From positions 63,430 through 127,429 of the forward strand of contig JAVBNW010000045.1 in NCBI GenBank assembly GCA_031551255.1: a DNA stretch of 64,000 nt, given 5' to 3'. Numbering within the stretch: position 1 is the stretch's first letter; the number at the start of each line of letters is the position of its first letter. Shown in pieces: positions 8,283 to 61,951 of this stretch. The notes beneath the pieces are model-generated. The model worked only from the letters and a program-made list of their open reading frames with translations, was not told the origin of the DNA and did not search any database. Origin of the DNA: Eubacteriales bacterium (lineage in GTDB: Bacteria > Bacillota > Clostridia > Christensenellales > UBA1750). The position numbers were made by a program, and so were the translations under genes.

Positions 8283-9218
8283 GTGAGATCGTTGTACGAC
8301 TATGGCTTAACCCGGTTTGTCCGCGCGATCGAGGAGCGCAAGCTCAGCCTGTACGGCGCGCTGGTGCATCAGCACGGAAGGAATGTTGGAGAAGTCCACT
8401 GGGTGAACGACCAGCCGCAAAACCTATACTCGCTGTCAAAATCCTTTGCGTCCACGGCCATCGGCATCGCGGTAGAGGAGGGCCTGATCAAGCTGACCGA
8501 CCGCGCGGTGGATATTCTGGCCGCCGACGAGCCCAAGGAAGTATCCGAGCGCCTTTCCAAAATGACGCTTCACGATGTTTTGATCATGGCCGGCGGACAC
8601 GACCGCTCCTATCTCCTCGCGGCGGAGCGCGCACAGCTTCGGCGCAAGGATTGGGTGCGCTATTACCTTGAGCAGCCGATGGCCTTTGAGCCGGGCGAGC
8701 GGTTTGTGTACGACACGGGCAATACCTATCTGGCGTCGGCCATGCTTAAGGCCGTCGCCGGGGAGACGCTTCTCTCCTACGCGATGCCGCGCCTGTTTGA
8801 GCCGCTGGGCATCGCCCCGCCCAGGTGGGACGCCTGCCCGCGAGGCATAACGCTCGGCGGCGCGGGGCTATACCTCACTCTCCAAGATGTCGCGAAGCTG
8901 GGCCTTTTGTATTTGAACAAGGGCATGTGGAACGGCCGGCGCATCGTAAGCGAGGATTGGGTCAAGCGCGCGTCGCAAAAGCACATCGATACGTTTGACG
9001 GCCCGCCCGAGCACGACGGGCACTATGGCTATGGCTATCAGTTCTGGCGGGGCAACCACGGAACGTACCGCGGGGACGGCGCGTACGGCCAGTTTTGCAT
9101 CGTGTTGCCCGAGTGGGACGCGGTGGTGACGATCCACTCGCGCGAGTACTACAATATCATGGCCATTCTCCAGGCGGTGTGGGATACGATCCTGCCCGAT
9201 CTTCAGGATAATATGTAG
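8283..9218 (+). CDS. Beta-lactamase-fold serine hydrolase (class C / PBP4*-like)
   Basis: Track ORF 8073..9218, whose first ~70 codons run through the repeat element above. GGGAGGG precedes an in-frame GTG at 8283 (a TTG at 8292 is also possible). SxxK motif in LYSLSKSFASTAIGIAVEEG. Confidence 0.75.
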   Translation: MRSLYDYGLTRFVRAIEERKLSLYGALVHQHGRNVGEVHWVNDQPQNLYSLSKSFASTAIGIAVEEGLIKLTDRAVDILAADEPKEVSERLSKMTLHDVLIMAGGHDRSYLLAAERAQLRRKDWVRYYLEQPMAFEPGERFVYDTGNTYLASAMLKAVAGETLLSYAMPRLFEPLGIAPPRWDACPRGITLGGAGLYLTLQDVAKLGLLYLNKGMWNGRRIVSEDWVKRASQKHIDTFDGPPEHDGHYGYGYQFWRGNHGTYRGDGAYGQFCIVLPEWDAVVTIHSREYYNIMAILQAVWDTILPDLQDNM

Positions 9219-9246
9219 CTTCGTCGGTTTGCATTGCGCTCGATCG

Positions 9247-9420
9247 CCCATGGCATTGCGGTGTCATGGGCGATTGCCGCTTCGTGAAACATCCTCTTCC
9301 TAAATAAGCTGAGGCTTCTTTGGGATGGAGAAGAACGAAAAACGCGCGCATTCGTTTTCCGCCCCATCGTTCTCAGCCCCCAAAACCGCCGCGCCGATAC
9401 AGCGACGTACGAAGCAGTAA
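9247..9420 (+). repeat. Hairpin-repeat family copy directly 3' of the 9218 stop
   Basis: 9247-9270 is cccatggcat-TGCG-gtgtcatggg, 10 bp including 2 G-U-type pairs. 9291-9300 is aTCCTCTTCC, abutting 9301-9324 (taaataagc-TGAG-gcttctttggg). This is followed by gaagaacgaa...ttcgttttc arms. Confidence 0.7.
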
Positions 9421-9523
9421 GCTGTTCAGAGGGATGTCGATTTGGGTTTCTCTGCTTGATTATTTTGTAGATTTATTTTATGGTTATAGTGAAGATAATT
9501 CATATAATATGAGGTAAGATATT

Positions 9524-10147
9524 TTGAAAAACATAATCATTGCGGGCGTGGGTCGAAACGGAAAAACAACATTAGCAAAAAAAATAAACGAAGAACTGAA
9601 TTACTTTGTTATCAGCCTTGATAAACTTATGACCGCGTTTGGGAAAGCATATCCGCAACTAGATATTAGAATTGCGTGGAATTATGAGAAAGCCACAGCC
9701 AACATAGCGCCGTTCCTTGGTCATTATCTTGGTATGCTTTTATCCGATCATGGCTATGCTGACAATTTAAACTTGCATACGCACGCCATAAAAGGAAATA
9801 AGTTTGTGTTGGAAGGAGGGCATTATGACTTTGAGATAATATCGTCCATCCTGAAGATCTATGGAATAGAAGAACTGAAAGACAGTTTTATTCTAATTGG
9901 GTTGGTGCAAAACAATAAAACGGCTGATGAATTTTTTAACGACTTAAGGAAATACGATACGGAAGACGAATGGACATATAGTTTCAATGATGAAGAGTTG
10001 AGAGATTTTAGTGAAATGCTTCTTAGATGGAATCATAAGTTTGCTGATTATTTGTTGCATCACGGTTTTACGCTTTATGATACATCGGTGGAACGAGAGC
10101 GGGTTTTTGATAGAATCATTGATGATATTAAGTTAAAGTTGGTGTAG
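9524..10147 (+). CDS. P-loop NTPase (adenylate/nucleoside-kinase-like), uncharacterised
   Basis: 207-aa ORF with a TTG start. Walker A motif in IIIAGVGRNGKTTLAKK. It lies in a visibly AT-rich islet. Confidence 0.6.
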   Translation: MKNIIIAGVGRNGKTTLAKKINEELNYFVISLDKLMTAFGKAYPQLDIRIAWNYEKATANIAPFLGHYLGMLLSDHGYADNLNLHTHAIKGNKFVLEGGHYDFEIISSILKIYGIEELKDSFILIGLVQNNKTADEFFNDLRKYDTEDEWTYSFNDEELRDFSEMLLRWNHKFADYLLHHGFTLYDTSVERERVFDRIIDDIKLKLV

Positions 10148-10344
10148 CAGAAGAATCGCGGACTCAAGCCTACAAAATAGGCCTCCCCGCAGTATAAGCA
10201 TTTGCTGTAAGGGGCTTGGAGGCTCCCAACAAGCGAAAACGGCAAGTGTCAATACAGGTCGTGTGTTTTGGGGCAAAAAAAGCCGCCGGACAGGCTATTT
10301 GACCTTTCGCAGCGGTTGATGCAGAAAATGCTTATTTTGTGTGT

Positions 10345-11151
10345 TTATGTGTTTAAGAGATATTTGTTAATCCAAATTGATATGCCCTCATTATCATTTG
10401 TTTCGGTTATATAATCAGCAACCTGTTTAACTTTGTCTATAGCATTTCCCATGGCGACACTAATCCCGGCGGATTTAAGCATTTCCATGTCGTTTATATC
10501 ATCTCCGAATACAATTATATCAGACAATGCTATACCAAAATATTCCGAAGCCTTTGTCAGTGCGTGTTCTTTTATGGCATTTTTGTTTAAAATCATTGCT
10601 GTGCCATCAGAAGTAACAAAGAAGTTGGTTTCTTCTGTTACACAGTCATATAATTTACTTTTATCATCGTGTTTGTCAAACTCTATTCGTATTCGTTGAA
10701 CTGCATGTCTTGGTAGTTCAAAGATGGTGCATTTTATTTTTTCACCTGTCTCGTTATTCCAATTTTCTCCACTTAAATTACTATAACTCCATGGTTCATG
10801 CATGACGCCAATTTTTGAGTTTGGATAAATCTCGATTAATCTATGTATAATTTCCATAGCGTTTTCATAAGAAATCACGTTGCTTTCTATTGATGCACTT
10901 GATGTATCCCCGACACATATTTCAGCGCCGTTATAATAAGCGATAAAATCACAGGGTAGACCAAATTGGTCTGTGAAAAAAGGTCTTTTTATTACTTCCG
11001 CTTTTAATGGACGTGCCCGACCCGTGATGTAACCAATAAGCATTCCTTTATATTTACAATTTCTTATTGCTTGAATACTGTTCGGAGTAATTATTTTTTT
11101 TGATGTCAGCAAGGTATCATCCAAATCAAACAAAAGCAATTTTTTACCCAT
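10345..11151 (-). CDS. Cof-type HAD-IIB family phosphatase
   Basis: 268-aa ORF with motif I LLLFDLDDTLL, ITGR, and motif IV VFGDDINDMEMLKSAGISVAMGNA. It lies in the AT-rich islet. Confidence 0.85.
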   Translation of the reverse strand: MGKKLLLFDLDDTLLTSKKIITPNSIQAIRNCKYKGMLIGYITGRARPLKAEVIKRPFFTDQFGLPCDFIAYYNGAEICVGDTSSASIESNVISYENAMEIIHRLIEIYPNSKIGVMHEPWSYSNLSGENWNNETGEKIKCTIFELPRHAVQRIRIEFDKHDDKSKLYDCVTEETNFFVTSDGTAMILNKNAIKEHALTKASEYFGIALSDIIVFGDDINDMEMLKSAGISVAMGNAIDKVKQVADYITETNDNEGISIWINKYLLNT

Positions 11152-11291
11152 TATATCCCCCCGCTAATATAAATACTCTGTAGCGCCAGTACTTATTTAA
11201 GTAAGAATATCATAGAAAGTCTCTCTGTTCAATCTGATATTTTGGTCCTATCTTGACACCAACACATTTCCTATGCTTGTTGCTCAATGAA

Positions 11292-11340
11292 TGCCAAGAG
11301 CGGGTAGTGTTTGCAAAGCAAACACTACCCGCTCTTGGCA
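11292..11340. repeat. Perfect 23-bp-stem / 3-nt-loop hairpin at the AT-rich/GC-rich boundary
   Basis: tgccaagagcgggtagtgtttgc-aaa-gcaaacactacccgctcttggca. There is no flanking T or A tract. Confidence 0.9.
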
Positions 11341-11445
11341 TGAGACATGACTTGATCATTGCCCTACAATCCACCTTACCGTACCCACGATCATGGGGAA
11401 GAGAATGACGAACGTGCACGCGCACCTTCCCTCGGCGTTCCAACT

Positions 11446-11554
11446 CCTCAAAAACGCCGCAGCGATTTTGAGGAAGAGGAGGGGCCACGGAGCAGACGTA
11501 CCCCCGCGACATCGCAATGTTGCGGGGGTACGAAGCGCAGTGCGCCCCGACGAG
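11446..11554. repeat. Hairpin-repeat family copy directly 3' of the asnS stop
   Basis: 11446-11473 is cctcaaaaacgc-CGCA-gcgattttgagg, followed by GGAAGAGGAG at 11472-11481. 11499-11530 is tacccccgcgacat-CGCA-atgttgcgggggta (14 bp). 11534-11554 is an exact inverted copy of the 21-nt box at 18908-18928. Confidence 0.8.
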
Positions 11555-11567
11555 TACCCCGACGGGT

Positions 11568-17699: not shown

Positions 17700-18030
17700 A
17701 GGCGTGCTGCAGACTGTCAAAAAAGCCTCGTGCCCTGCGTGATCTGGGAGGTTTGGAGGGCAGGGCGCTCCAAGTGCAATCGCCCGTCGGCGGCCGGAGC
17801 CGGGCGCGCGCAGTGCGCGATGAAGCCCGGCGGAAGGCCCGTAAAAACGGCAAAATGTGCGGCAAGCGCGCGGCTAAAATCGCGTTTTTGCTGACCGTGC
17901 GTCGTATGTTCCTCGTCGTGCTTCCTCGGCGGGGGGCTCACGGGGGGGGTACGCGTACCACCCGTGCCGTGAAACGGCGTGCCGCCAGATCATAAAAGCG
18001 CCGCAGCACTTTTTTGACAGGTTGTGCGCG
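17700..18030. repeat. ORF-free GC-rich hairpin-dense spacer directly 3' of the 18031 stop (degenerate members of the repeat family)
   Basis: Examples are 17994-18013 (aaaagcgc-CGCA-gcactttt), gccgt-gaa-acggc, the palindrome GGTACGCGTACC, and a G8 run. The track ORFs here are Arg-rich artefacts. Confidence 0.45.
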
Positions 18031-18867
18031 CTATACGCCCTGCCCGTCCCCCGATAGTAGTTTATCGACAAACGCCATTTCCAGAGCAAAAGCCTCGTTC
18101 CACGCGCTTTCGTTGTGCAGCTCGTGGCGCATGCCGGGAAATTCGCGGTATTCGCACAGCGCACCCGCCCCGGCGGCAAAATCTCGCGAGCCCAACGGAT
18201 CGCAGATCGAATCGCCCCCTCCGTGTACCAGCAACAGCGGCACGGAAAGCTCGCCCGCGTGGGCCAGCGAGTGGATTCCAGCGCGGTGCGCGCCCAGGGC
18301 CATGCTCAGCGATATCTTACTATGCACGAGCGGGTCTCGGGCATACGCATTGCTTTTTTCAGGATCTGAGCACAGGCCGGCGGCGTCCAGCCCATTGTCG
18401 ATGGTTAAGCCCGGGGCCATGAAGGCCAATGCGGGGAGCAAGGCGGCCGTGGCGCCGGATATGGGGCGCACGAGCCTGAGCCAGGGGCTGGATACGATGC
18501 CTCCGATCACCGGCAGGGGCTGCGTCAGCAGCAAATGGATCGCCAAACCGCCGCCGAAGCTGTGGCCGAACAAAATTAAAGGCGCGCCATCCTGCGCTGA
18601 AGCGGCCAAAAACTCCAGCGCGTCCTGTATGATTTTTGCGTACGGAGCATCGCCCCGTTTGCCGGGCGACAGCCCGTGGCCGCGATAGTCCAGCATGCGC
18701 AGGGACAAACCGCGGCTATTGAACGCCTCGCCGACGGCGGCATAGCGCCCGGCGTACTCGCCCAGACCATGCAGCCCACATACGACGGCTCGCGGCGAAG
18801 GCGCCTCAAAGCGCGTCAGGTGAAGCTCCACCCCATCCGACATGCGCATGGTATCTTCGTGGCGCAT
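18031..18867 (-). CDS. Alpha/beta hydrolase (lysophospholipase / monoacylglycerol-lipase-like)
   Basis: 278-aa ORF with HGLGEYAGRY and the nucleophile elbow LFGHSFGG. Confidence 0.85.
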   Translation of the reverse strand: MRHEDTMRMSDGVELHLTRFEAPSPRAVVCGLHGLGEYAGRYAAVGEAFNSRGLSLRMLDYRGHGLSPGKRGDAPYAKIIQDALEFLAASAQDGAPLILFGHSFGGGLAIHLLLTQPLPVIGGIVSSPWLRLVRPISGATAALLPALAFMAPGLTIDNGLDAAGLCSDPEKSNAYARDPLVHSKISLSMALGAHRAGIHSLAHAGELSVPLLLVHGGGDSICDPLGSRDFAAGAGALCEYREFPGMRHELHNESAWNEAFALEMAFVDKLLSGDGQGV

Positions 18868-19229
18868 AACACATCACATCCTCATCGTCGCGGACTTCGT
18901 ATCGCTCCTCGTCGGGGCGCACTGCGCTCCTCCTCTTCCTCAAAACCGCTGAGGCGATTTTACGGAGTGGCAAGCTGCGACGAAGAAAGAAACGGGGCAA
19001 CTCGTCGTCGCGGACTGCGCATCGCCCCCCTCTTCCTTCGAATCGCTGTGGCGTTTTGAAGGAGTACGTCGCGTCGGGGCAAAAAACGGGAGCGCGCGCT
19101 CCTCATCCCTCTTACTCCCACTCCCAAAGAAACCTCAGTTTCTTTGGGAAGAGGAGATTCCACGGAGCGGACATTCCCATATGGCATCGCAATGCCGTAT
19201 GGGAATAAAGCACAGTGCGAATCGACGAG
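18868..19229. repeat. Array of the modular hairpin-repeat family
   Basis: CTCCTCTTCC at 18930-39 abuts the hairpin at 18938-65 (loop TGAG). Other hairpins: 19027-63 (loop TGTG), 19123-48 (cccaaagaaac-CTCA-gtttctttggg, followed by GGAAGAGGAG at 19147-56), and 19176-19203 (cccatatggcat-CGCA-atgccgtatggg). The boxes TCGTCGCGGACTKCGYATCGC (twice) and CTCGTCGGGGCGCACTGCGCT (18908-28) are also present. Confidence 0.85.
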
Positions 19230-19490
19230 TTAGATGCCTAGCGCATCCGAGATCGCTTCGGCAATTGCCGCAATCGCCGCGTCTTCGTCTTTGCCGTCGG
19301 CCGTCAAACGCACGGTGCTGGAAATCTCTCCTAGCGATACCATGCCCATTACGGATTTTGCGTTGACCGTTTTACTGCCAATGTTAATGAGCACGCTCGC
19401 GCCATACTTGGTCGCGATGCGCACGATTCCGCTCGCCGCCTGCGCCGATATGCGCCCGCCCCTTCCGACGGGTAGTTCCTTAGTGGTCAT
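19230..19490 (-). CDS. HPr-like phosphocarrier-fold protein of the Crh type (Ser-46 motif present, His-15 absent)
   Basis: 86-aa ORF: ...GRGGRISAQAASGIV...GSKTVNAKSVMGMVSLG.... An ATGA start/stop overlap joins it to whiA. The Bacillus yvcJ-yvcK-whiA-crh operon is the model for this arrangement. Confidence 0.8.
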   Translation of the reverse strand: MTTKELPVGRGGRISAQAASGIVRIATKYGASVLINIGSKTVNAKSVMGMVSLGEISSTVRLTADGKDEDAAIAAIAEAISDALGI

Positions 19491-23661: not shown

Positions 23662-24387
23662 CGGCGGTCCCCCCCATCCATCGTATGGAAAAAGACCGCG
23701 GGTTATGTTCCGCGGCTCAGCGCGATGACAAACTGCGGTTTGTCATTGCGACATGCAAGTGCTTGAGGTGGCTCATGCATGCCGGATGGATTGGAAACAG
23801 CGGAGGATGAAGCAATCCGGCATCGCGCAAGACGGCGCTTCGGAAAAGTCTCTCGCTTACGCTCACCACGTCTTGCGTCATTTTCGACCGGACTTGCATA
23901 CCGGCCGGCATGAGCCTGCGGCCGTACAACCTTGCAGTTCGCAAGTACCCGTGGCAATCTTCTAACGCAGATTGCCACGGGTCGCTACTCCACCCCACCA
24001 AACCTTCGGTTTGTCGAGGACCCCGGCTGGCTTTGCGCCGTGCTGATTTGCGCCTTTGGCGCGCACGGCTCCGGCCGCCCTCCGGCTCTTTTTATGCGAA
24101 GGCCCGACACCAAGCCCGTGCAGTGCACGCAAGCAGCCAGGGGCAGAGCCGGTGAGCGACCTGCGGTAGCCGACTTTGAGAGGCTGGCACAGGTATCCGC
24201 CAACTGAGGCAGGCCCCGCGCCCCGGGAAGAACCGCATAATGCAGAACCTCTTCCGTTTCCTGAACCTTTCTTTTTCTTTGTTTACTTTCTCATCAGCCT
24301 GGGCCGCGGTTTTATGGATTTATGGCGGGTATCGCCGAAGGGGATATTACGATATGCGCTCTAAATTGCCCCTCAGCAGCCTCTCAT
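23662..24387. other. 726-bp ORF-free, hairpin-dense spacer
   Basis: Hairpins: 23721-50 (13-bp stem, loop TGCG); 23826-34 paired with 23869-77 (cgcaagacg/cgtcttgcg, 34-nt loop); 23947-82 (acccgtggcaatct...agattgccacgggt, 14 bp). All track ORFs here are short and low-complexity. Confidence 0.7.
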
Positions 24388-34085: not shown

Positions 34086-34416
34086 CGTGTAATCTTCCTT
34101 TCCGTCGTGAGTGCGCGCCTGAACAACATTGCCGTTTTCGGCGACCGCAGCCTTTTCAGGCGTTTTGTGCTGGCTACGCTTATTAAACGTGCGCGCGGAA
34201 AGAAAGTTATGCACGTTTTGTGAAGAAATTGTGGCAGAGTATGAAGCAATGTGATGTCTTAAGTGCGACTAAAAATGATGCGGAGCCTCCGCTGCCCTGA
34301 GTGCGCCGCACCGCGGGTTTTACTTCTTTGCATCCGCCGCGAACCACTTATACCTTCCATACATAGGATGCACTATGCCCGATTCTATCCGGGCGGATGC
34401 AAAGGAGGAAGCAGAT

Positions 34417-35523
34417 TTGCCATATCCATTTCATCGCTGTAATTGCCGCGGAACGTGCTCCTGCGGCGGAGGAACCACCATCGTCGGGGTACCCGGCCCT
34501 GTCGGCGCTACCGGCCCGGCCGGCCTGCCCGGCGCAACGGGAGCTACCGGCCCCGTGGCATTTAACGAAGTAGTGTTGTTTGATCCGCTGCTCGCGCCGA
34601 ATTATTTGCGCGGGCAGATTGTCATTCACAACGGCAGCGCATATGTCGTATTGACTTCGCCGCCGGTCGGCATTCCCGGCTCTTCATCGTCGTATGAGCT
34701 GATCCACATCAACGGCGGCATCACCGGAGCCACCGGGGCTACGGGCGTGGGTGCAACCGGCGCTGCGGGTACAACCGGCGCAACAGGCCCCACCGGCGCT
34801 ACGGGCGTCGGCATCACCGGACCTACCGGGCTTACCGGGCCCGCCGGCCCTATCGGAGCTACCGGGGCAACCGGCGCTACCGGCCCTGCCGGGGCGAATG
34901 GTTTGAGCGTTACCGGCCCCACAGGCGCAACCGGGCCCACGGGTGCGGCGGGAGTCGCCGGTTCCGTAGGCGCCACAGGCCCCATAGGCCCCACGGGCGC
35001 TGCAGGGGCCACTGGTCCTACGGGCGCAACCGGAGCGGACGGCCTGAGCGTTACCGGGCCTACCGGAGCCACCGGCCCCACAGGCGCTACGGGCGCCACC
35101 GGCCCGGCCGGCGGCGGATCGCTTAGCAACACGGCCTTCGCTGCGGCGGTTAGCGGCCCCTCAATCCCTGTGCTGTTGGGCGGAGCAGCCATCGCGCTGC
35201 CCGATGCGCAGGTGCTCCCTGCGGGCATCACCATCAACGCCGCCAACACGGTCTTTACCGTGAACACGGCGGGCGTCTATCGCATCACCTACTTTATCAA
35301 CACCGCGGTCTCGCTGTTGCTGGGCACGCGCCTTGTGGTCAATGGCGCTGCGGTTCCAGCTTCCAACATCACACCGGTGGTCACGCACACGCGCTTTGCC
35401 GCCGAAATTGTGTTGCCGCTTGCCGCCGGCAGTACGGTGGCGCTGGAGTTCTACGGCCTCATCGGGCTTGCGACTCTCGTCGAGGGCGCGGGCGCGCTTC
35501 TGACGATTTCCCAGGTGGCGTAA
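34417..35523 (+). CDS. Collagen-like (G-x-T repeat) protein with a BclA-type C-terminal globular domain; probable spore-surface/exosporium glycoprotein
   Basis: Track ORF starts at 34375. AAGGAGGAA, 6 nt and an in-frame TTG at 34417. The product has the Cys-rich N-terminus [18 protein letters not shown], two GxY runs, and a C-terminal ~130-aa beta-rich domain (...[18 protein letters not shown]...STVALEFYG...). Confidence 0.8.
34486..35118 (+). repeat. Triplet-periodic collagen-like coding repeats (GGN-NNN-ACN), interrupted at 34555-34716
   Basis: [20 protein letters not shown], then about 45 consecutive G-x-y triplets, mostly GAT/GPT. The antisense 213-aa ORF (PVAPV-rich) is an artefact of these repeats. 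Confidence 0.9.
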
Positions 35524-46300: not shown

Positions 46301-47136
46301 AGGCCCTCCACTAGCTCGTCGGCCGTCATGATGCCCTCGGGCAGCGCGATACCCCGCTTGCGAAGCCTGTCCGCCAGCGCGAGCGGGCGTGGCGGTTCAA
46401 GGCCCGCTTTTGCGAGCAGCGCGGCGTCTTTGAGCACTTCGCGCGGCGCGCCTTGCGCAAGAATCTCGCCCTCTTCCATCACAATCACCCGGTCGGCGCG
46501 CATCGCTTCCTCCATAAAATGGGTGATCAATATAAGCGTTAAGCCCTTTTCCCGCCTGAGCTTTTCCACCGTGGCGATAACCTCGCGCCGCCCTTCAGGA
46601 TCCAGCATGGCGGTGGGCTCGTCCAGCACCATCGCCCGAGTTTGCATCGCCAGCACGCCGGCGATGGCCACGCGCTGCTTTTGCCCGCCGGAGAGCATGT
46701 GCGGAGCCGAGCCGGCGTATTTTGAAAGGCCTACCGCGAGCAGCGCCTCGTCGACCCGTTCGCGGATTTCTCGCGGCGGCACGCCTAAATTCTCGAGCCC
46801 GAACGCGACGTCTTCTTCTACGATGGTGGTGACGATCTGGTTGTCCGGATTTTGCTGCACCAGGCCTACCGCGCGGCGGATATCCAGGGTGAGAAGTTCG
46901 TCTTTCGTATCCATGCCCAGCACCGTCACCCTACCCTTGGTGGGCAGGTACAGTGCGTTCATGAGCTTGGCGATCGTAGACTTTCCCGAGCCGTTGTGCC
47001 CGATGATGCAGACAAATTCCCCTTCGCACACGGAAAAGGAGGCGCCACGCACCGCAGGCTGCGCCTCGGGCGCGAGATCGCCTTCATCATCCCGGGAGAC
47101 GGGGTATTCATACCAGCAATCGCTGAGCGTAATCAA
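46276..47136 (-). CDS. ecfA1: ECF transporter ATP-binding protein EcfA1
   Basis: 286-aa ORF. TTG start at 47136 follows GGAAAGGGG. Motifs: GHNGSGKSTI, LSGGQKQRVAIAGVLAM and VLDEPTAMLD. Confidence 0.9.
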   Translation of the reverse strand: MITLSDCWYEYPVSRDDEGDLAPEAQPAVRGASFSVCEGEFVCIIGHNGSGKSTIAKLMNALYLPTKGRVTVLGMDTKDELLTLDIRRAVGLVQQNPDNQIVTTIVEEDVAFGLENLGVPPREIRERVDEALLAVGLSKYAGSAPHMLSGGQKQRVAIAGVLAMQTRAMVLDEPTAMLDPEGRREVIATVEKLRREKGLTLILITHFMEEAMRADRVIVMEEGEILAQGAPREVLKDAALLAKAGLEPPRPLALADRLRKRGIALPEGIMTADELVEGLCGLKRGS

Positions 47137-47219
47137 CGGCGGAGCCCCTTTCCAAAGCGCTTGGCAAACTAAGATATGGATATGTCCGGTCGGACAAAAG
47201 TTGCTGTAAAACGCGCATT

Positions 47220-47248
47220 ATTGTAGCATGCCCACGCAGCAGGGACAA
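47220..47248 (-). promoter_or_regulatory. Sigma-A-type promoter candidate of the ecf-truA operon
   Basis: On the minus strand: TTGTCC (47248-43), 17 nt, then TACAAT (47225-20). Confidence 0.5.
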
Positions 47249-47249
47249 C

Positions 47250-47829
47250 GGAGGAAAGGTTACATTTCGTCGTCGCGGACTGCGTATTGCTCGCTTCCAC
47301 ACTGCGGTGTGAAAGCTCGTTCACTGCGTCGCTCCTCCTCTTCCATAAAACCGCTGCGGCGGTTTTATGGATTAAGGACGACGAAGAAGGCACGGAGCTC
47401 ACGCTTTTCGTTCTTCTTTCCCCCACAAGACGCCTTAGCGTCTTGTGGAAGAGGAGGGGCCTCGTTGTCGCGGATTGCGTATCGCTCGCGTCGTCGGTTT
47501 GCACTACGCTCTAGTCCCGCAAAACACTGCGGCGTTTAACGGGAATTGGCGCTCCGTGGAATCTCCTCTTCCTCAAAACCGCTGAGGCAATTTTGAGGGT
47601 TAAGAAGAACGAGGGGTAAAGAACAAAAGCTCGCGCTCCCCGTTCCTCCATAAAGAGCACTGCGGCGCTTTTATGGGTTGGGAACGACGAAGAGAATGCG
47701 GGGCGCGCGTTCTTCGTTCTTCTAAACCCCAAAGAAACCTCAGTTTCTTTGGGAAGCGGAGGTTTCACGTAGCGCCAATTGCCCGCAGTACCGCGGTGCG
47801 CGGGGAATAGGGCGTAGTGCAAACCTCCG
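47250..47829. repeat. Largest array of the modular hairpin-repeat family (at least 7 hairpins)
   Basis: Hairpins at 47298-311, 47343-70 (perfect 12 bp, loop TGCG), 47423-48 (perfect 11 bp, loop CTTA), 47516-43, 47571-98 (loop TGAG), 47648-76, and 47728-53 (perfect 11 bp, loop CTCA). CTCCTCTTCC is at 47335-44 and 47563-72, and GGAAGAGGAG at 47447-56. The box TCGTYGTCGCGGAYTGCGTATYGCTCGC is at 47267-93 and 47462-89. Confidence 0.88.
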
Positions 47830-48876
47830 CTATTCGGCCAGGGCGCCGACAAACCAGTGGATTCTGACGAGCTTGTCGCTCTTCGCATCAAAGAAAAATG
47901 AACAGCACGCGTGCTGTCGATAGTAATAGGCGCCGCTGTCAAGGTCCGCATCGTCGCAGGGCTCTACGGGCGCGATCAGGCGCAGCACGTAAGCGCCGTT
48001 TTCGTTCACATCCCGCGATAGTTCGGCCATCGGAGGAAACATACGCCCGTCGGGCCAGATATCGGCGTACAGGGTGGCGGTATCCGCGCCCGAAAGTCGA
48101 TCGTCGGCCTCGTTCGCCGCTTCGTTCGCTTCGTCGATGGAGGAGTCGCGATCAGGCAGCTTTACGCGGAATTTTTTCAGCACCTCCTCAAGCGACGCGC
48201 CCACGCGCAGGCCGCGCGGGCCGGGCCAGTCTTTGGAAGTAACCGTCATGCCGGTGAGACTATTTCCGCCTACAAACTCGGCATACAGCCCGTCGTATGC
48301 GAGCGTCGTAACCTTAAGGCCGGTCAGCTCTTCCGTATGATCTTCGCGCATCGGCGGCTCGCCCAGTTCCCCTATGACCTCCTCCACGCCCGAGCGGGCT
48401 CGGATGCCCATCATGCGAAGATCGCCGGGGACAAATGCCCCAAAGGGTGGCACGTAGCGCGGCGTCGGCTCGGGTTCGGCCAGGGTTTCCACGATTACGG
48501 GCTCCAGCGTGGGTTCCGGCGTAAGCTCCGGGGTGGGGCGGCGCGTGATCAGCGCGGGCCTTGCGCCCGCATGCTCCGCGGAACGCGGCAAGGGCGGCTT
48601 GATCGCGCAGCCGCCCAACAAGCACAGCGCCATAAGCGCTGCGATTGCCCTATATCGGTTCCCCTCGGGGGTTTTTGTGCCGCCTCCCGCAAGCTCTTCG
48701 GCCGGATGATTTTCCGCTATGCCGCGTCGGTTTCGGCCTTGCGCAGTCCTGCCGCGCGATGGTCTCTCCGCCTTGGCAGGCAAAAAAATCTCTTGGCCGG
48801 GCATCATGCGAGGGTTGCCCAAGAAGCCCAATGCCTTTGTAGGATCCCTCATCAGCGCATCCTTTGTATATATCAT
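47830..48876 (-). CDS. Hypothetical membrane-anchored/lipoprotein-like protein with Pro/Glu/Thr-rich linker
   Basis: 348-aa ORF. It has a hydrophobic segment plus a lipobox-like AALMALCLLGGCAIKP about 75 aa from the annotated start, so the start is uncertain (alternative ATG at 48852). The linker is TPELTPEPTLEPVIVETLAEPEPTP. Confidence 0.6.
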   Translation of the reverse strand: MIYTKDALMRDPTKALGFLGNPRMMPGQEIFLPAKAERPSRGRTAQGRNRRGIAENHPAEELAGGGTKTPEGNRYRAIAALMALCLLGGCAIKPPLPRSAEHAGARPALITRRPTPELTPEPTLEPVIVETLAEPEPTPRYVPPFGAFVPGDLRMMGIRARSGVEEVIGELGEPPMREDHTEELTGLKVTTLAYDGLYAEFVGGNSLTGMTVTSKDWPGPRGLRVGASLEEVLKKFRVKLPDRDSSIDEANEAANEADDRLSGADTATLYADIWPDGRMFPPMAELSRDVNENGAYVLRLIAPVEPCDDADLDSGAYYYRQHACCSFFFDAKSDKLVRIHWFVGALAE

Positions 48877-61904: not shown

Positions 61905-61951
61905 GCTACAAATAAATATAATACGTAATATGTATTATATTTATTTGTAGC
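61905..61951. terminator. Perfect 20-bp AT-rich hairpin downstream of hcp (possible terminator)
   Basis: gctacaaataaatataatac-gtaatat-gtattatatttatttgtagc, followed by gttt. Confidence 0.5.

Follow-up and report, generated by a model that had tools for sequence, protein, structure and literature searches.

A folded repeat unit of about 110 nt in Clostridia and Coriobacteriales: an apparently undescribed member of the small palindromic repeats

Introduction

The window analysed here, i.e., 64,000 nt (64 kb) of the Eubacteriales bacterium contig JAVBNW010000045.1, contains upstream of the ecfA1 gene a 580-bp gap that is packed with hairpins, and the question raised by this locus is what kind of element these hairpins form and how it came to lie there. 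An earlier note, made from the letters alone, had described the gap as an array of intergenic repeats, modular in build and mixed in orientation, which resembled the BOX/REP/RUP type but could not be assigned to any described element. Both parts of this description were upheld: further copies were found and covariation was identified in two helices (hp2 and P1), and no described element was matched, there being nothing in Rfam or in the plasmid and viral collections and the CGTC-tagged repetitive extragenic palindromes (CGTC-REPs) failing on architecture. Beyond that account, helix P1, which joins both of the 'boxes' noted before, a unit of ~110 nt and three more arrays within the window were identified. 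The 580-bp gap is a cluster of four such units, and the repeat seems to belong to the well-known class of small 'selfish' palindromic repeats, as a member not described so far. With a probability of roughly one half, it is understood here as a new non-autonomous element, similar to REPs and their clusters (bacterial interspersed mosaic elements, BIMEs) or to miniature inverted-repeat transposable elements (MITEs), which would be handled as folded single-stranded DNA (ssDNA) by a trans-acting, structure-recognising enzyme.

Anatomy and covariation of the repeat unit

The unit comprises, in this order, CGTCG, the 5' strand of P1, T.CGCT, hairpin hp1, GCGCTCC, the 3' strand of P1, CTCCTCTTCC, hairpin hp2 and a short tail, together ~110 nt. 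P1 is a helix of 7-9 bp enclosing a junction and the variable hairpin hp1 (loop TGCG in this genome), hp2 is an A-rich hairpin with a TGNG loop, and between hp1 and hp2 runs the single-stranded linker GCGCTCCGTGG...CTCCTCTTCC, whose conserved form is GCGCTCC-GTGG-NNNN-CTCCTCTTCC. P1 was found by RNAalifold on full-length copies from the window and from other organisms and pairs four variable bases plus CAC, following the CGTCG head, with GTGG plus four variable bases preceding CTCCTCTTCC. The alternation of boxes and hairpins which the earlier note reported is present, but these are not loose modules; they are parts of one three-helix unit, which occurs in the focal gap in four copies.

The fold is kept by compensatory changes. 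Five distal P1 variants were identified, each of them complementary (GTTT/AAAC, ATTC/GAAT, GGGC/GCCC, CAGC/GCTG and CATC/GATG), and a sixth (CAAA.CCC/GGGTTTG) occurs in locus L005, in a unit outside the training set. Across 13 units, 94% of the P1 cells pair, as compared to 76% after shuffling and 24-48% with a slid partner, whereby 22 cells carry double changes and none of 500 shuffles reaches the score. When 17 units aligned with the covariance model are considered, 96.5% of the cells are paired and seven of nine pairs show double-side changes, an alignment that leans towards structure as it was fitted to the model. For hp2, the compensatory change which the earlier note had read from the hairpin stems was borne out with 11 window copies: 88% of the cells pair against 73% in shuffled and 41-59% in slid controls, both sides change in eight of 12 pairs and again 0/500 shuffles attain the observed score. 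Folding of single units by minimum free energy (MFE, n=19) recovered P1, hp1 and hp2 in most of them.

At the 5' end, 14 of the 17 aligned units carry a CGTC(G/A) tag which lies outside P1, the tag of the other three being diverged, truncated or lost at a contig end. The 5' strand of P1 directly follows the tag, its partner is located ~55-120 nt away and the hairpins are more than 20 nt from the tag. The 3' ends read (G/A/T)CCCC... or GGxTTAAG, and CCA stands on the 5' side of the tag, within the tRNA or target that flanks the unit. The unit consensus contains no conserved GTAG. Between lineages the whole unit is colinear in the alignment, with the linkers CTCCTCTTCC and GCGCTCC strongly conserved across phyla.

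The array upstream of ecfA1

The region 47137-47829 is flanked by two minus-strand genes, i.e., upstream by a hypothetical gene at 47830-48876 (348 aa, minus strand, no Pfam domain, two database homologues only) and downstream by the ecfA1-ecfA2-ecfT-truA operon. The hairpins from which the earlier note had set out are all in place: 47298-47311 (cacac-TGCG-gtgtg), 47343-47370 (a perfect 12-bp stem with TGCG loop, inverted repeat I10), 47423-47448 (I13) and 47728-47753 (I14), both with perfect stems, 47516-47543, 47648-47676 and 47571-47598, the stem of the latter containing two C.A mismatches. The same applies to its pyrimidine box CTCCTCTTCC (47335-44 and 47563-72, inverted at 47447-56) and to the longer shared box TCGTCGCGGAYTGCGTATYGC, which is a direct repeat at 47267-97 and 47462-92 with 87% identity (D4). 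Together, these parts are arranged as follows, with bit scores referring to covariance model R1 of the unit.

47262-47831: whole array, made up of two inverted pairs of units placed tail to tail (four units) and of spacer hairpins, reaching from the stop codon at 47830-47832 to the ecfA promoter
47266-47377, plus strand: unit 1; head TTCGTCGTCG at 47266-75, short hp1 at 47298-47311 (TGCG loop), CTCCTCTTCC at 47335-44, perfect hp2 at 47343-47370 (TGCG loop); 79.2 bits (training-set member), MFE of the unit alone gives P1, hp1 and hp2
47378-47420: spacer 'arm' hairpin between units 1 and 2, ACGACGAAGAAGG...CTTTTCGTTCTTCTT; seen in MFE structures, direct repeat D2 with 47684-47731
47420-47497, minus strand: unit 2; inverted, without a full hp1, perfect hp2 at 47423-47448, GGAAGAGGAG at 47447-56, head box at 47462-47497; model match 47414-47561 on the minus strand, 28.7 bits, outside the training set; inverted repeats I5 and I13
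47490-47605, plus strand: unit 3; complete, head GTCGTCGG, P1 5' strand 47496-47504, hp1 47511-47549 (TGCG loop), P1 3' strand 47556-47563, CTCCTCTTCC at 47563-72, hp2 47570-47599 (TGAG loop); 99.2 bits (training member), based also on MFE and P1 covariation
47640-47676, plus strand: solo hp2-type hairpin with degenerate pyrimidine box CCGTTCCTCC, inside the pair of units 3 and 4; direct-repeat families D1 and D3, row A4 of alignment A2
47675-47729: second spacer 'arm' hairpin, GGGTTGGGAACGACGAAGA / TCTTCGTTCTTCTAAACCC round a GC-rich loop; inverted repeat I7, MFE
47720-47831, minus strand: unit 4; inverted, complete, perfect hp2 at 47728-47753, box 2 at 47752-47772, hp1 at ~47775-47805, head and P1 at 47803-47831; 79.5 bits (training member), MFE; I1 and I4 pair it with unit 3
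47220-47248, minus strand: ecfA1 promoter TTGTCC-17-TG-TACAAT; kept in relatives, outside the repeat, left border of the array

The TAG stop codon of the upstream gene contributes its AG as the first two aligned bases of unit 4, and the promoter-proximal border of the array was placed by alignment with relatives. Compared to dinucleotide shuffles, the predicted fold of 47137-47829 is exceptionally stable on both strands (minus, -325.4 kcal/mol, z -9.4; plus, -339.5 kcal/mol, z -15.8; for each strand 0/20 shuffles as good). The long-range inverted repeats I1, I4 and I5 and the giant predicted hairpin result from the tail-to-tail arrangement of the unit pairs with their heads outward, together with the 'arm' hairpins and the solo hp2. 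As the pairs lie tail to tail with outward heads, each of them can be folded into one long hairpin or cruciform, like the doublets known as REPINs and like MITEs. The earlier note's statement that the gap lacks a credible open reading frame (ORF) holds with one reservation: no Pfam match was obtained for the mechanical ORFs over the arrays, yet such ORFs of 103-146 aa do cross the region, and they are made of repeat modules. TRF gave no sign of a tandem-repeat or CRISPR-like array in the region, and the 64-kb window contains neither tRNA nor tmRNA genes.

The closest named relatives of EcfA1, ~59% identical, fall within Christensenellales. Relatives with 76-79% identical EcfA1 possess just 155-185 nt upstream of ecfA1, with the promoter conserved, another upstream gene and no array, and in 20 kb of one relative neither BLAST nor the covariance model detected a unit. 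Expansion of the unit is lineage-specific. As side observations at this site, the ecfA1 5' leader (window 47137-47200) is ~60 nt longer than in the two closest relatives and includes a small palindrome, GTCCGACCGGAC, and yabP/yabQ adjoin ecfA in the relatives.

Dispersal within the window

A census of the window with model R1 (filters off) revealed nine units, all located within four intergenic arrays and none elsewhere in the 64 kb, and the box-2 pattern CTCCGTGGNNNCTCCTCTTCC matches eight times at up to three mismatches, with 0.04 matches expected. Copies beyond the focal array are found at 9220-9410, 11385-11556 and 18880-19230 and also in three other lineages (see below). The additional arrays are:

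18880-19230: second array; units 18908-18972 (plus), 19001-19069 (plus) and 19115-19229 (minus), scoring 38.9-39, 26.4 and 96.7 bits; bounded by the stop codon (19230-19232, minus strand) of an HPr-like gene and by a hydrolase gene that starts at 18867
9220-9410, plus strand: third array; full unit 9220-9332 (87.9 bits), arm hairpin, degenerate inverted remnant 9371-9409 (11.3 bits); begins 1 nt past the TAG stop of the gene ending at 9218
11385-11556, minus strand: fourth array; full unit 11439-11554 (94.6 bits), partial duplicate head before the unit, arm hairpin 11385-11440; begins 13 nt past the asnS stop (11568-70), the asnS C-terminus looking full-length

Units favour the first bases after genes, the arrays starting 0, 0, 1 and 13 nt past stop codons. 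The junctions read TAG|CGGAGG at 47830, TAA|CTCGTCG at 19230 and TAG-C-TTCGTCGG at 9218, and at the array borders no target duplication was found. Since the arrays directly follow stop codons, they are probably transcribed into 3' untranslated regions. Two short-read contigs from this organism (SRR23967709, Logan), 100% identical to the window, end exactly in the shared hp2 module (at 47729 and 19149), as assemblers break at multi-copy repeats.

Several observations touch on solitary hairpins in the window. At 17984-18022, ~15 nt downstream of the hydrolase gene ending at 18031, a solo hp2-like hairpin (tcataaaagcgc-CGCA-gcacttttttga) lacks the rest of the unit; it is perhaps a degenerate unit, or else a source of hp2. 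A second ORF-free region of ~660 nt (23662-24321) lies between divergent genes, with a fold that exceeds shuffles only moderately (z -3.0) and no Rfam match at E<=1; it contains, at 23721-23750, a hairpin with a TGCG loop in which short-read contig L032 terminates (23745) and, at 24306-24320, a fragment that exactly matches the 3' half of hp2 from unit 1.

Copies in other lineages

A scan of 185,579 species genomes with an 18-base pattern returned 12 stretches, five of them in one Coriobacteriales metagenome-assembled genome (MAG), one in a Clostridiales MAG and one in an Oscillospiraceae MAG (L012); the remaining five were rejected as chance matches, as model R1 gave them at most 23.5 bits or nothing, as compared to 61-101 bits for real units. 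The unit is thus present in at least four lineages of two phyla, and its true spread is probably wider. In the Coriobacteriales MAG, it is located 3' of all five tRNA genes seen (Ala, Lys, Arg, Phe and Ser), following CCA, whereby four junctions read CCA|CGTCG and one contains a CTT spacer; here the units form tandem arrays co-oriented with the tRNA. The Clostridiales MAG holds one full unit and short box2-hp2 repeats.

As an observation on the Coriobacteriales arrays, a locus-specific variant of box 1 recurs past the unit (L006 2440-2620; L008 5162-5290, where AGCAGGCTGCGCTC stands on both sides), so that these arrays start and end with box 1, which could reflect tandem duplication or recombination at box 1. 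A resemblance of ACTACG, i.e., box 1, to the nick site of pMV158 or to the ssoA CS-6 motif was dropped, as the key position varies across units (ACT-N-CG).

The search for a described counterpart gave no match. Rfam 15 at gathering thresholds yielded nothing in the window; with permissive settings (E < 10), 47000-48000 gave noise only (up to 20 bits, with cut-offs of 39-130), and in the Coriobacteriales, Clostridiales and Oscillospiraceae loci Rfam detected tRNAs only. Distant BLAST searches of the PLSDB plasmids with the array and with the L012 unit remained without match, and three patterns run against viral contigs gave no match or chance matches lacking the architecture. In metagenome contigs, an exact 20-base pattern, which was probably too strict, returned only the known Clostridiales contig and chance matches in coding sequences, and full-text searches of the literature for the motif, and for REP or MITE reports in these taxa, produced noise only.

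Presence and absence in a mobilisable element

The Oscillospiraceae unit occupies the 3'-terminal part of a NikA-like ORF and is immediately followed by a MobA/VirD2 relaxase gene. These genes are part of an integrative mobilisable element of gut Clostridia, which also carries ParB, an ALP/ParM-like gene and a recombinase of the serine or tyrosine type. Comparison with empty alleles (L040-L044) documents a clean, unit-exact presence/absence polymorphism. The filled allele reads GTTGCCA|CGTCACATC...CCCCGATGA|TTTACCC and the empty one GTTGCCA|TTTATTGC; the difference of ~107 nt coincides with the unit ends, starting at CGTC, the junction being ambiguous by 1 nt and free of target duplication. 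CCA stands 5' of the head, as it does after the tRNAs, and is present in the empty allele too. In three filled alleles, compensatory hp1 changes were identified (CTGTCGG/CCGACAG, CTTTCG/CGAAAG and CTTTTGCC/GGCAAAAG). L033, a 98-aa NikA allele, was rejected as an empty site, since the relaxase is deleted there.

The unit also alters the reading frames around it. Where the unit is present, the relaxase starts with GTG instead of ATG, and a putative Shine-Dalgarno sequence (GGAG) lies inside the unit. For the NikA-like ORF 471 homologues were retrieved, many of which (131-143 aa) carry a C-terminal tail G[ST]PQSLLCGE[KE]EHPRS...RSVM that others (98-123 aa) lack. This tail, GSPQSLLCGEKEHPRS...RSVM, is the in-frame translation of the unit (P0126-P0245; L012 761-1156; L034 4001-4432) and looks like an artefact of ORF calling or an accidental extension. 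As a side observation in this element family, the relaxase of L041 (3333-6138) is shortened to 151 aa, and behind it lies a reverse transcriptase/maturase of the group II intron type (RVT_1, Intron_maturas2, HNH).

Comparison with known repeats

In kind, the repeat belongs with REP/BIME, REPIN, BOX, RUP and bcr, and the CGTC-REPs are the only described class that shares a sequence feature with it. Clusters of REP-type repeats in E. coli are the BIMEs, and the corresponding cluster organisation is found here, with four intergenic arrays, plus and minus units and 'arm' spacers. Further shared with REP, BIME and REPIN are short structured extragenic repeats with a conserved terminal tag, mosaic arrays of alternating orientation, inverted doublets that can be folded into a long hairpin, lineage-specific expansion, the lack of target duplication and a location mostly downstream of genes, often few nucleotides from the stop codon. 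However, a REP is a single palindrome of 20-40 nt, whereas the present unit measures ~110 nt and consists of P1, hp1 and hp2 with long conserved linkers; its head is CGTCG and not GTAG, its hosts are Clostridia and Coriobacteriales, no REP-associated tyrosine transposase (RAYT) was seen in the 64 kb of this genome that are visible, and the unit can be recognised in more than one phylum, unlike the families of REPs, which as a rule are specific to a species or genus.

BOX and RUP of Streptococcus pneumoniae and bcr of the Bacillus cereus group are modular or structured intergenic Firmicutes repeats of ~100-150 nt that are predicted to fold stably, vary in the number of their modules and are mobilised in trans or in an unknown manner. 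The unit resembles them by description, as a structured modular intergenic repeat, whereby no relationship in sequence is expected; they differ in using another module set without a P1-enclosed architecture and in being confined to one genus or species group. Non-autonomous elements derived from IS200/IS605 (PATEs) and other MITEs are likewise hairpin-rich and ORF-free and share with the unit insertion without duplication 3' of a short specific sequence and a strand-specific orientation (here in the Coriobacteriales tRNA cases), but no parent insertion sequence sharing its ends was found. In classical MITEs, target-site duplications accompany the terminal inverted repeats, and such duplications are not seen here. 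Inverted pairs of the unit do possess inverted termini of ~110 nt with CGTCG outward, and single and tandem direct units occur as well; the unit of insertion or deletion is the single unit and not only the inverted pair.

The CGTC-REPs (PMC3733652) share the terminal unpaired CGTC, frequent inverted dimers, the lack of an identified dedicated transposase and CCA at the boundaries. As described by Di Nocera et al. 2013, their tag abuts an 8-9-bp stem that starts with A/T pairs and has a 4-5-nt loop and an unpaired CCA tail (PMC3733652), and they are listed in Proteobacteria, Chlorobi, Bacteroidetes, Spirochaetes and Thermotogae only, thus in neither Firmicutes nor Actinobacteria (PMC3733652). 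In the present unit, by contrast, the tag is followed by a P1 strand with the hairpins 20-80 nt off; CCA lies in the 5' flank and does not form a tail; and the dimers point their heads outward, whereas head-to-head dimers predominate among CGTC-REPs (PMC3733652). With this architecture differing, the repeat is filed outside any named family.

Mobilisation and alternative explanations

According to the preferred reading, the unit would be copied to new sites as folded ssDNA by a trans-acting enzyme that recognises its structure, and the covariation would reflect what this enzyme must recognise. Precedent for such a process is provided by the HUH/Y1 transposases (RAYT and the IS200/IS605 TnpA), which act on REPs and on the ends of insertion sequences. 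Insertion without duplication is a property of both the IS200/IS605 and the RAYT enzymes. Insertion of the unit is suggested to occur 3' of a short target, which would be CCA in the five tRNA genes and in the mobilisable element. As a side effect, the stable hairpins of the arrays might shield the mRNA upstream of them or keep read-through from reaching the ecfA promoter. The IS200/IS605 enzymes bind subterminal hairpins, define their cleavage sites via a guide tetranucleotide and a flanking target tetranucleotide and insert beside a short target (PMC6006769).

Several points weigh against such an ssDNA element. The units of the window are preceded by CT or TT and not by CCA, and hence the target rule is not uniform. 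A Pfam search of 43 window ORFs identified no transposase of any kind, only housekeeping genes. Neither wobble-pair counts nor per-strand energies point to a consistent functional strand: G.U and A.C pairs number 4 vs 7 in hp2 and about 6 vs 2 in P1 (counted by eye), and the energies of top and bottom strand disagree between lineages. In the mobilisable element, the unit is kept with compensatory changes across alleles that have different integrases, so it may be useful there rather than purely selfish, and the single filled/empty comparison could represent a deletion instead of an insertion. The exact abutment to stop codons and to tRNA 3' ends could fit a role in RNA equally well.

Such a role defines the most substantial alternative, a host-selected RNA element, i.e., a 3' trailer of protein and tRNA genes acting in RNA, which is considered less likely but a serious rival. 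It might block 3' exonucleases and stabilise mRNA, act as Rho- or structure-dependent transcription barrier that insulates a downstream promoter, regulate in a manner coupled to translation termination or serve as tRNA 3'-processing signal. Array starts 0-13 nt past stop codons, units right after the tRNA CCA and co-oriented with the tRNA in five of five cases, the covarying fold, the array just upstream of the ecfA promoter, the retention of a unit ahead of the relaxase start codon and the cross-phylum conservation of the linkers CTCCTCTTCC and GCGCTCC, as expected for a binding site or tertiary contact, all argue for it, and E. coli REPs within 15 nt of stop codons are reported to be tied to translational control (PMC12306157). 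However, every array of the window presents both unit orientations to one direction of transcription, the unit of the mobilisable element is antisense to the tRNA-linked orientation, no U tract follows the hairpins, G.U and A.C pairs reveal no consistent strand asymmetry and the nearest relatives manage the same operon without the array. The joint proposal of either a cross-phylum, ssDNA-mobilised element inserting exactly 3' of CCA, and hence behind tRNA genes, or a structured RNA that sets the 3' end of the upstream transcript, possibly by self-cleavage or guided processing at CCA|CGUCG or stop|CGUCG, is unlikely; three covarying helices, invariant single-stranded linkers, zero-distance junctions and the unit retained upstream of the relaxase start are consistent with both of its branches.

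An origin from conjugation is a poorer candidate still. It assumes an ssDNA signal of conjugative or mobilisable elements, similar to an origin of transfer (oriT) or a single-strand origin and recognised by the relaxase, with the chromosomal copies as relaxase by-products. Relaxases are HUH enzymes acting on hairpinned ssDNA, and in a widespread element family one unit immediately precedes the gene for a MobA/VirD2-type relaxase, lying within the NikA-like ORF at its 3' end, where it is retained with compensatory changes across alleles. But the sister alleles of this module (L040, L042-L044) lack the unit and keep the relaxase intact, thus the unit is not their oriT; moreover, no MOB gene is located near the window arrays, and the sequence occurs in no PLSDB plasmid. 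One large gene for a structured non-coding RNA, comparable to OLE, ROOL or GOLLD and filling the 580-bp gap, which the very strong predicted fold, the long-range helices and the lack of an ORF with family match might suggest, is largely refuted, as the same modules are otherwise combined at three other loci, the long-range helices are pairing between inverted units, Rfam gave nothing beyond noise at E < 10 and the region is absent from the orthologous site in relatives. That the hairpins of this GC-rich spacer arose by chance or are ordinary intrinsic terminators is refuted: a simple scan did return five terminator-like matches with 1.8 expected, but against this stand the z-scores of -9 to -16, eight box-2 matches against 0.04 expected, the covariation and homologues in other phyla scoring 61-101 bits, with chance matches reaching no more than 23.5. 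Intrinsic terminators were rejected also because the hairpins are devoid of U tracts.

If true, the reading as a mobile ssDNA repeat establishes a new structured repeat family for Clostridia (a Christensenellales-like lineage, Oscillospiraceae and a Clostridiales MAG) and Coriobacteriales, with a unit anatomy that is unusually well defined and recognisable across two phyla and with the integrative mobilisable element as a carrier that could explain the spread of the unit. In practical terms, the repeat breaks short-read assemblies at predictable points and inflates ORF calls, the tails on many of the 471 NikA-like homologues being translated unit, and, by setting very stable hairpins right behind stop codons and tRNA genes, it may influence the 3' ends of RNAs. 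For the question of how tagged palindromic repeats that lack a known transposase are moved, it offers a tractable test case, and a CCA-targeted ssDNA element, if true, would supply the missing mobilisation story for the 'orphan' CGTC-tagged repeats.

Additional observations in the window

Between two of the arrays, a low-GC island (9400-11300; ~45% as compared to ~59%) contains ORFs with a third-position GC content (GC3) of 0.29-0.39 and a perfect hairpin with a 24-bp stem (11291-11341), and it is possibly acquired DNA. An AT-rich hairpin with a 22-bp stem and one mismatch is found at 61905-61951 in the otherwise GC-rich window. At 34375-35523 a BclA-like collagen-repeat protein (Collagen and BclA_C domains) is encoded, with 9-nt tandem repeats at 34816-35105, which suggests that the host is a spore-former with an exosporium-type filament protein.

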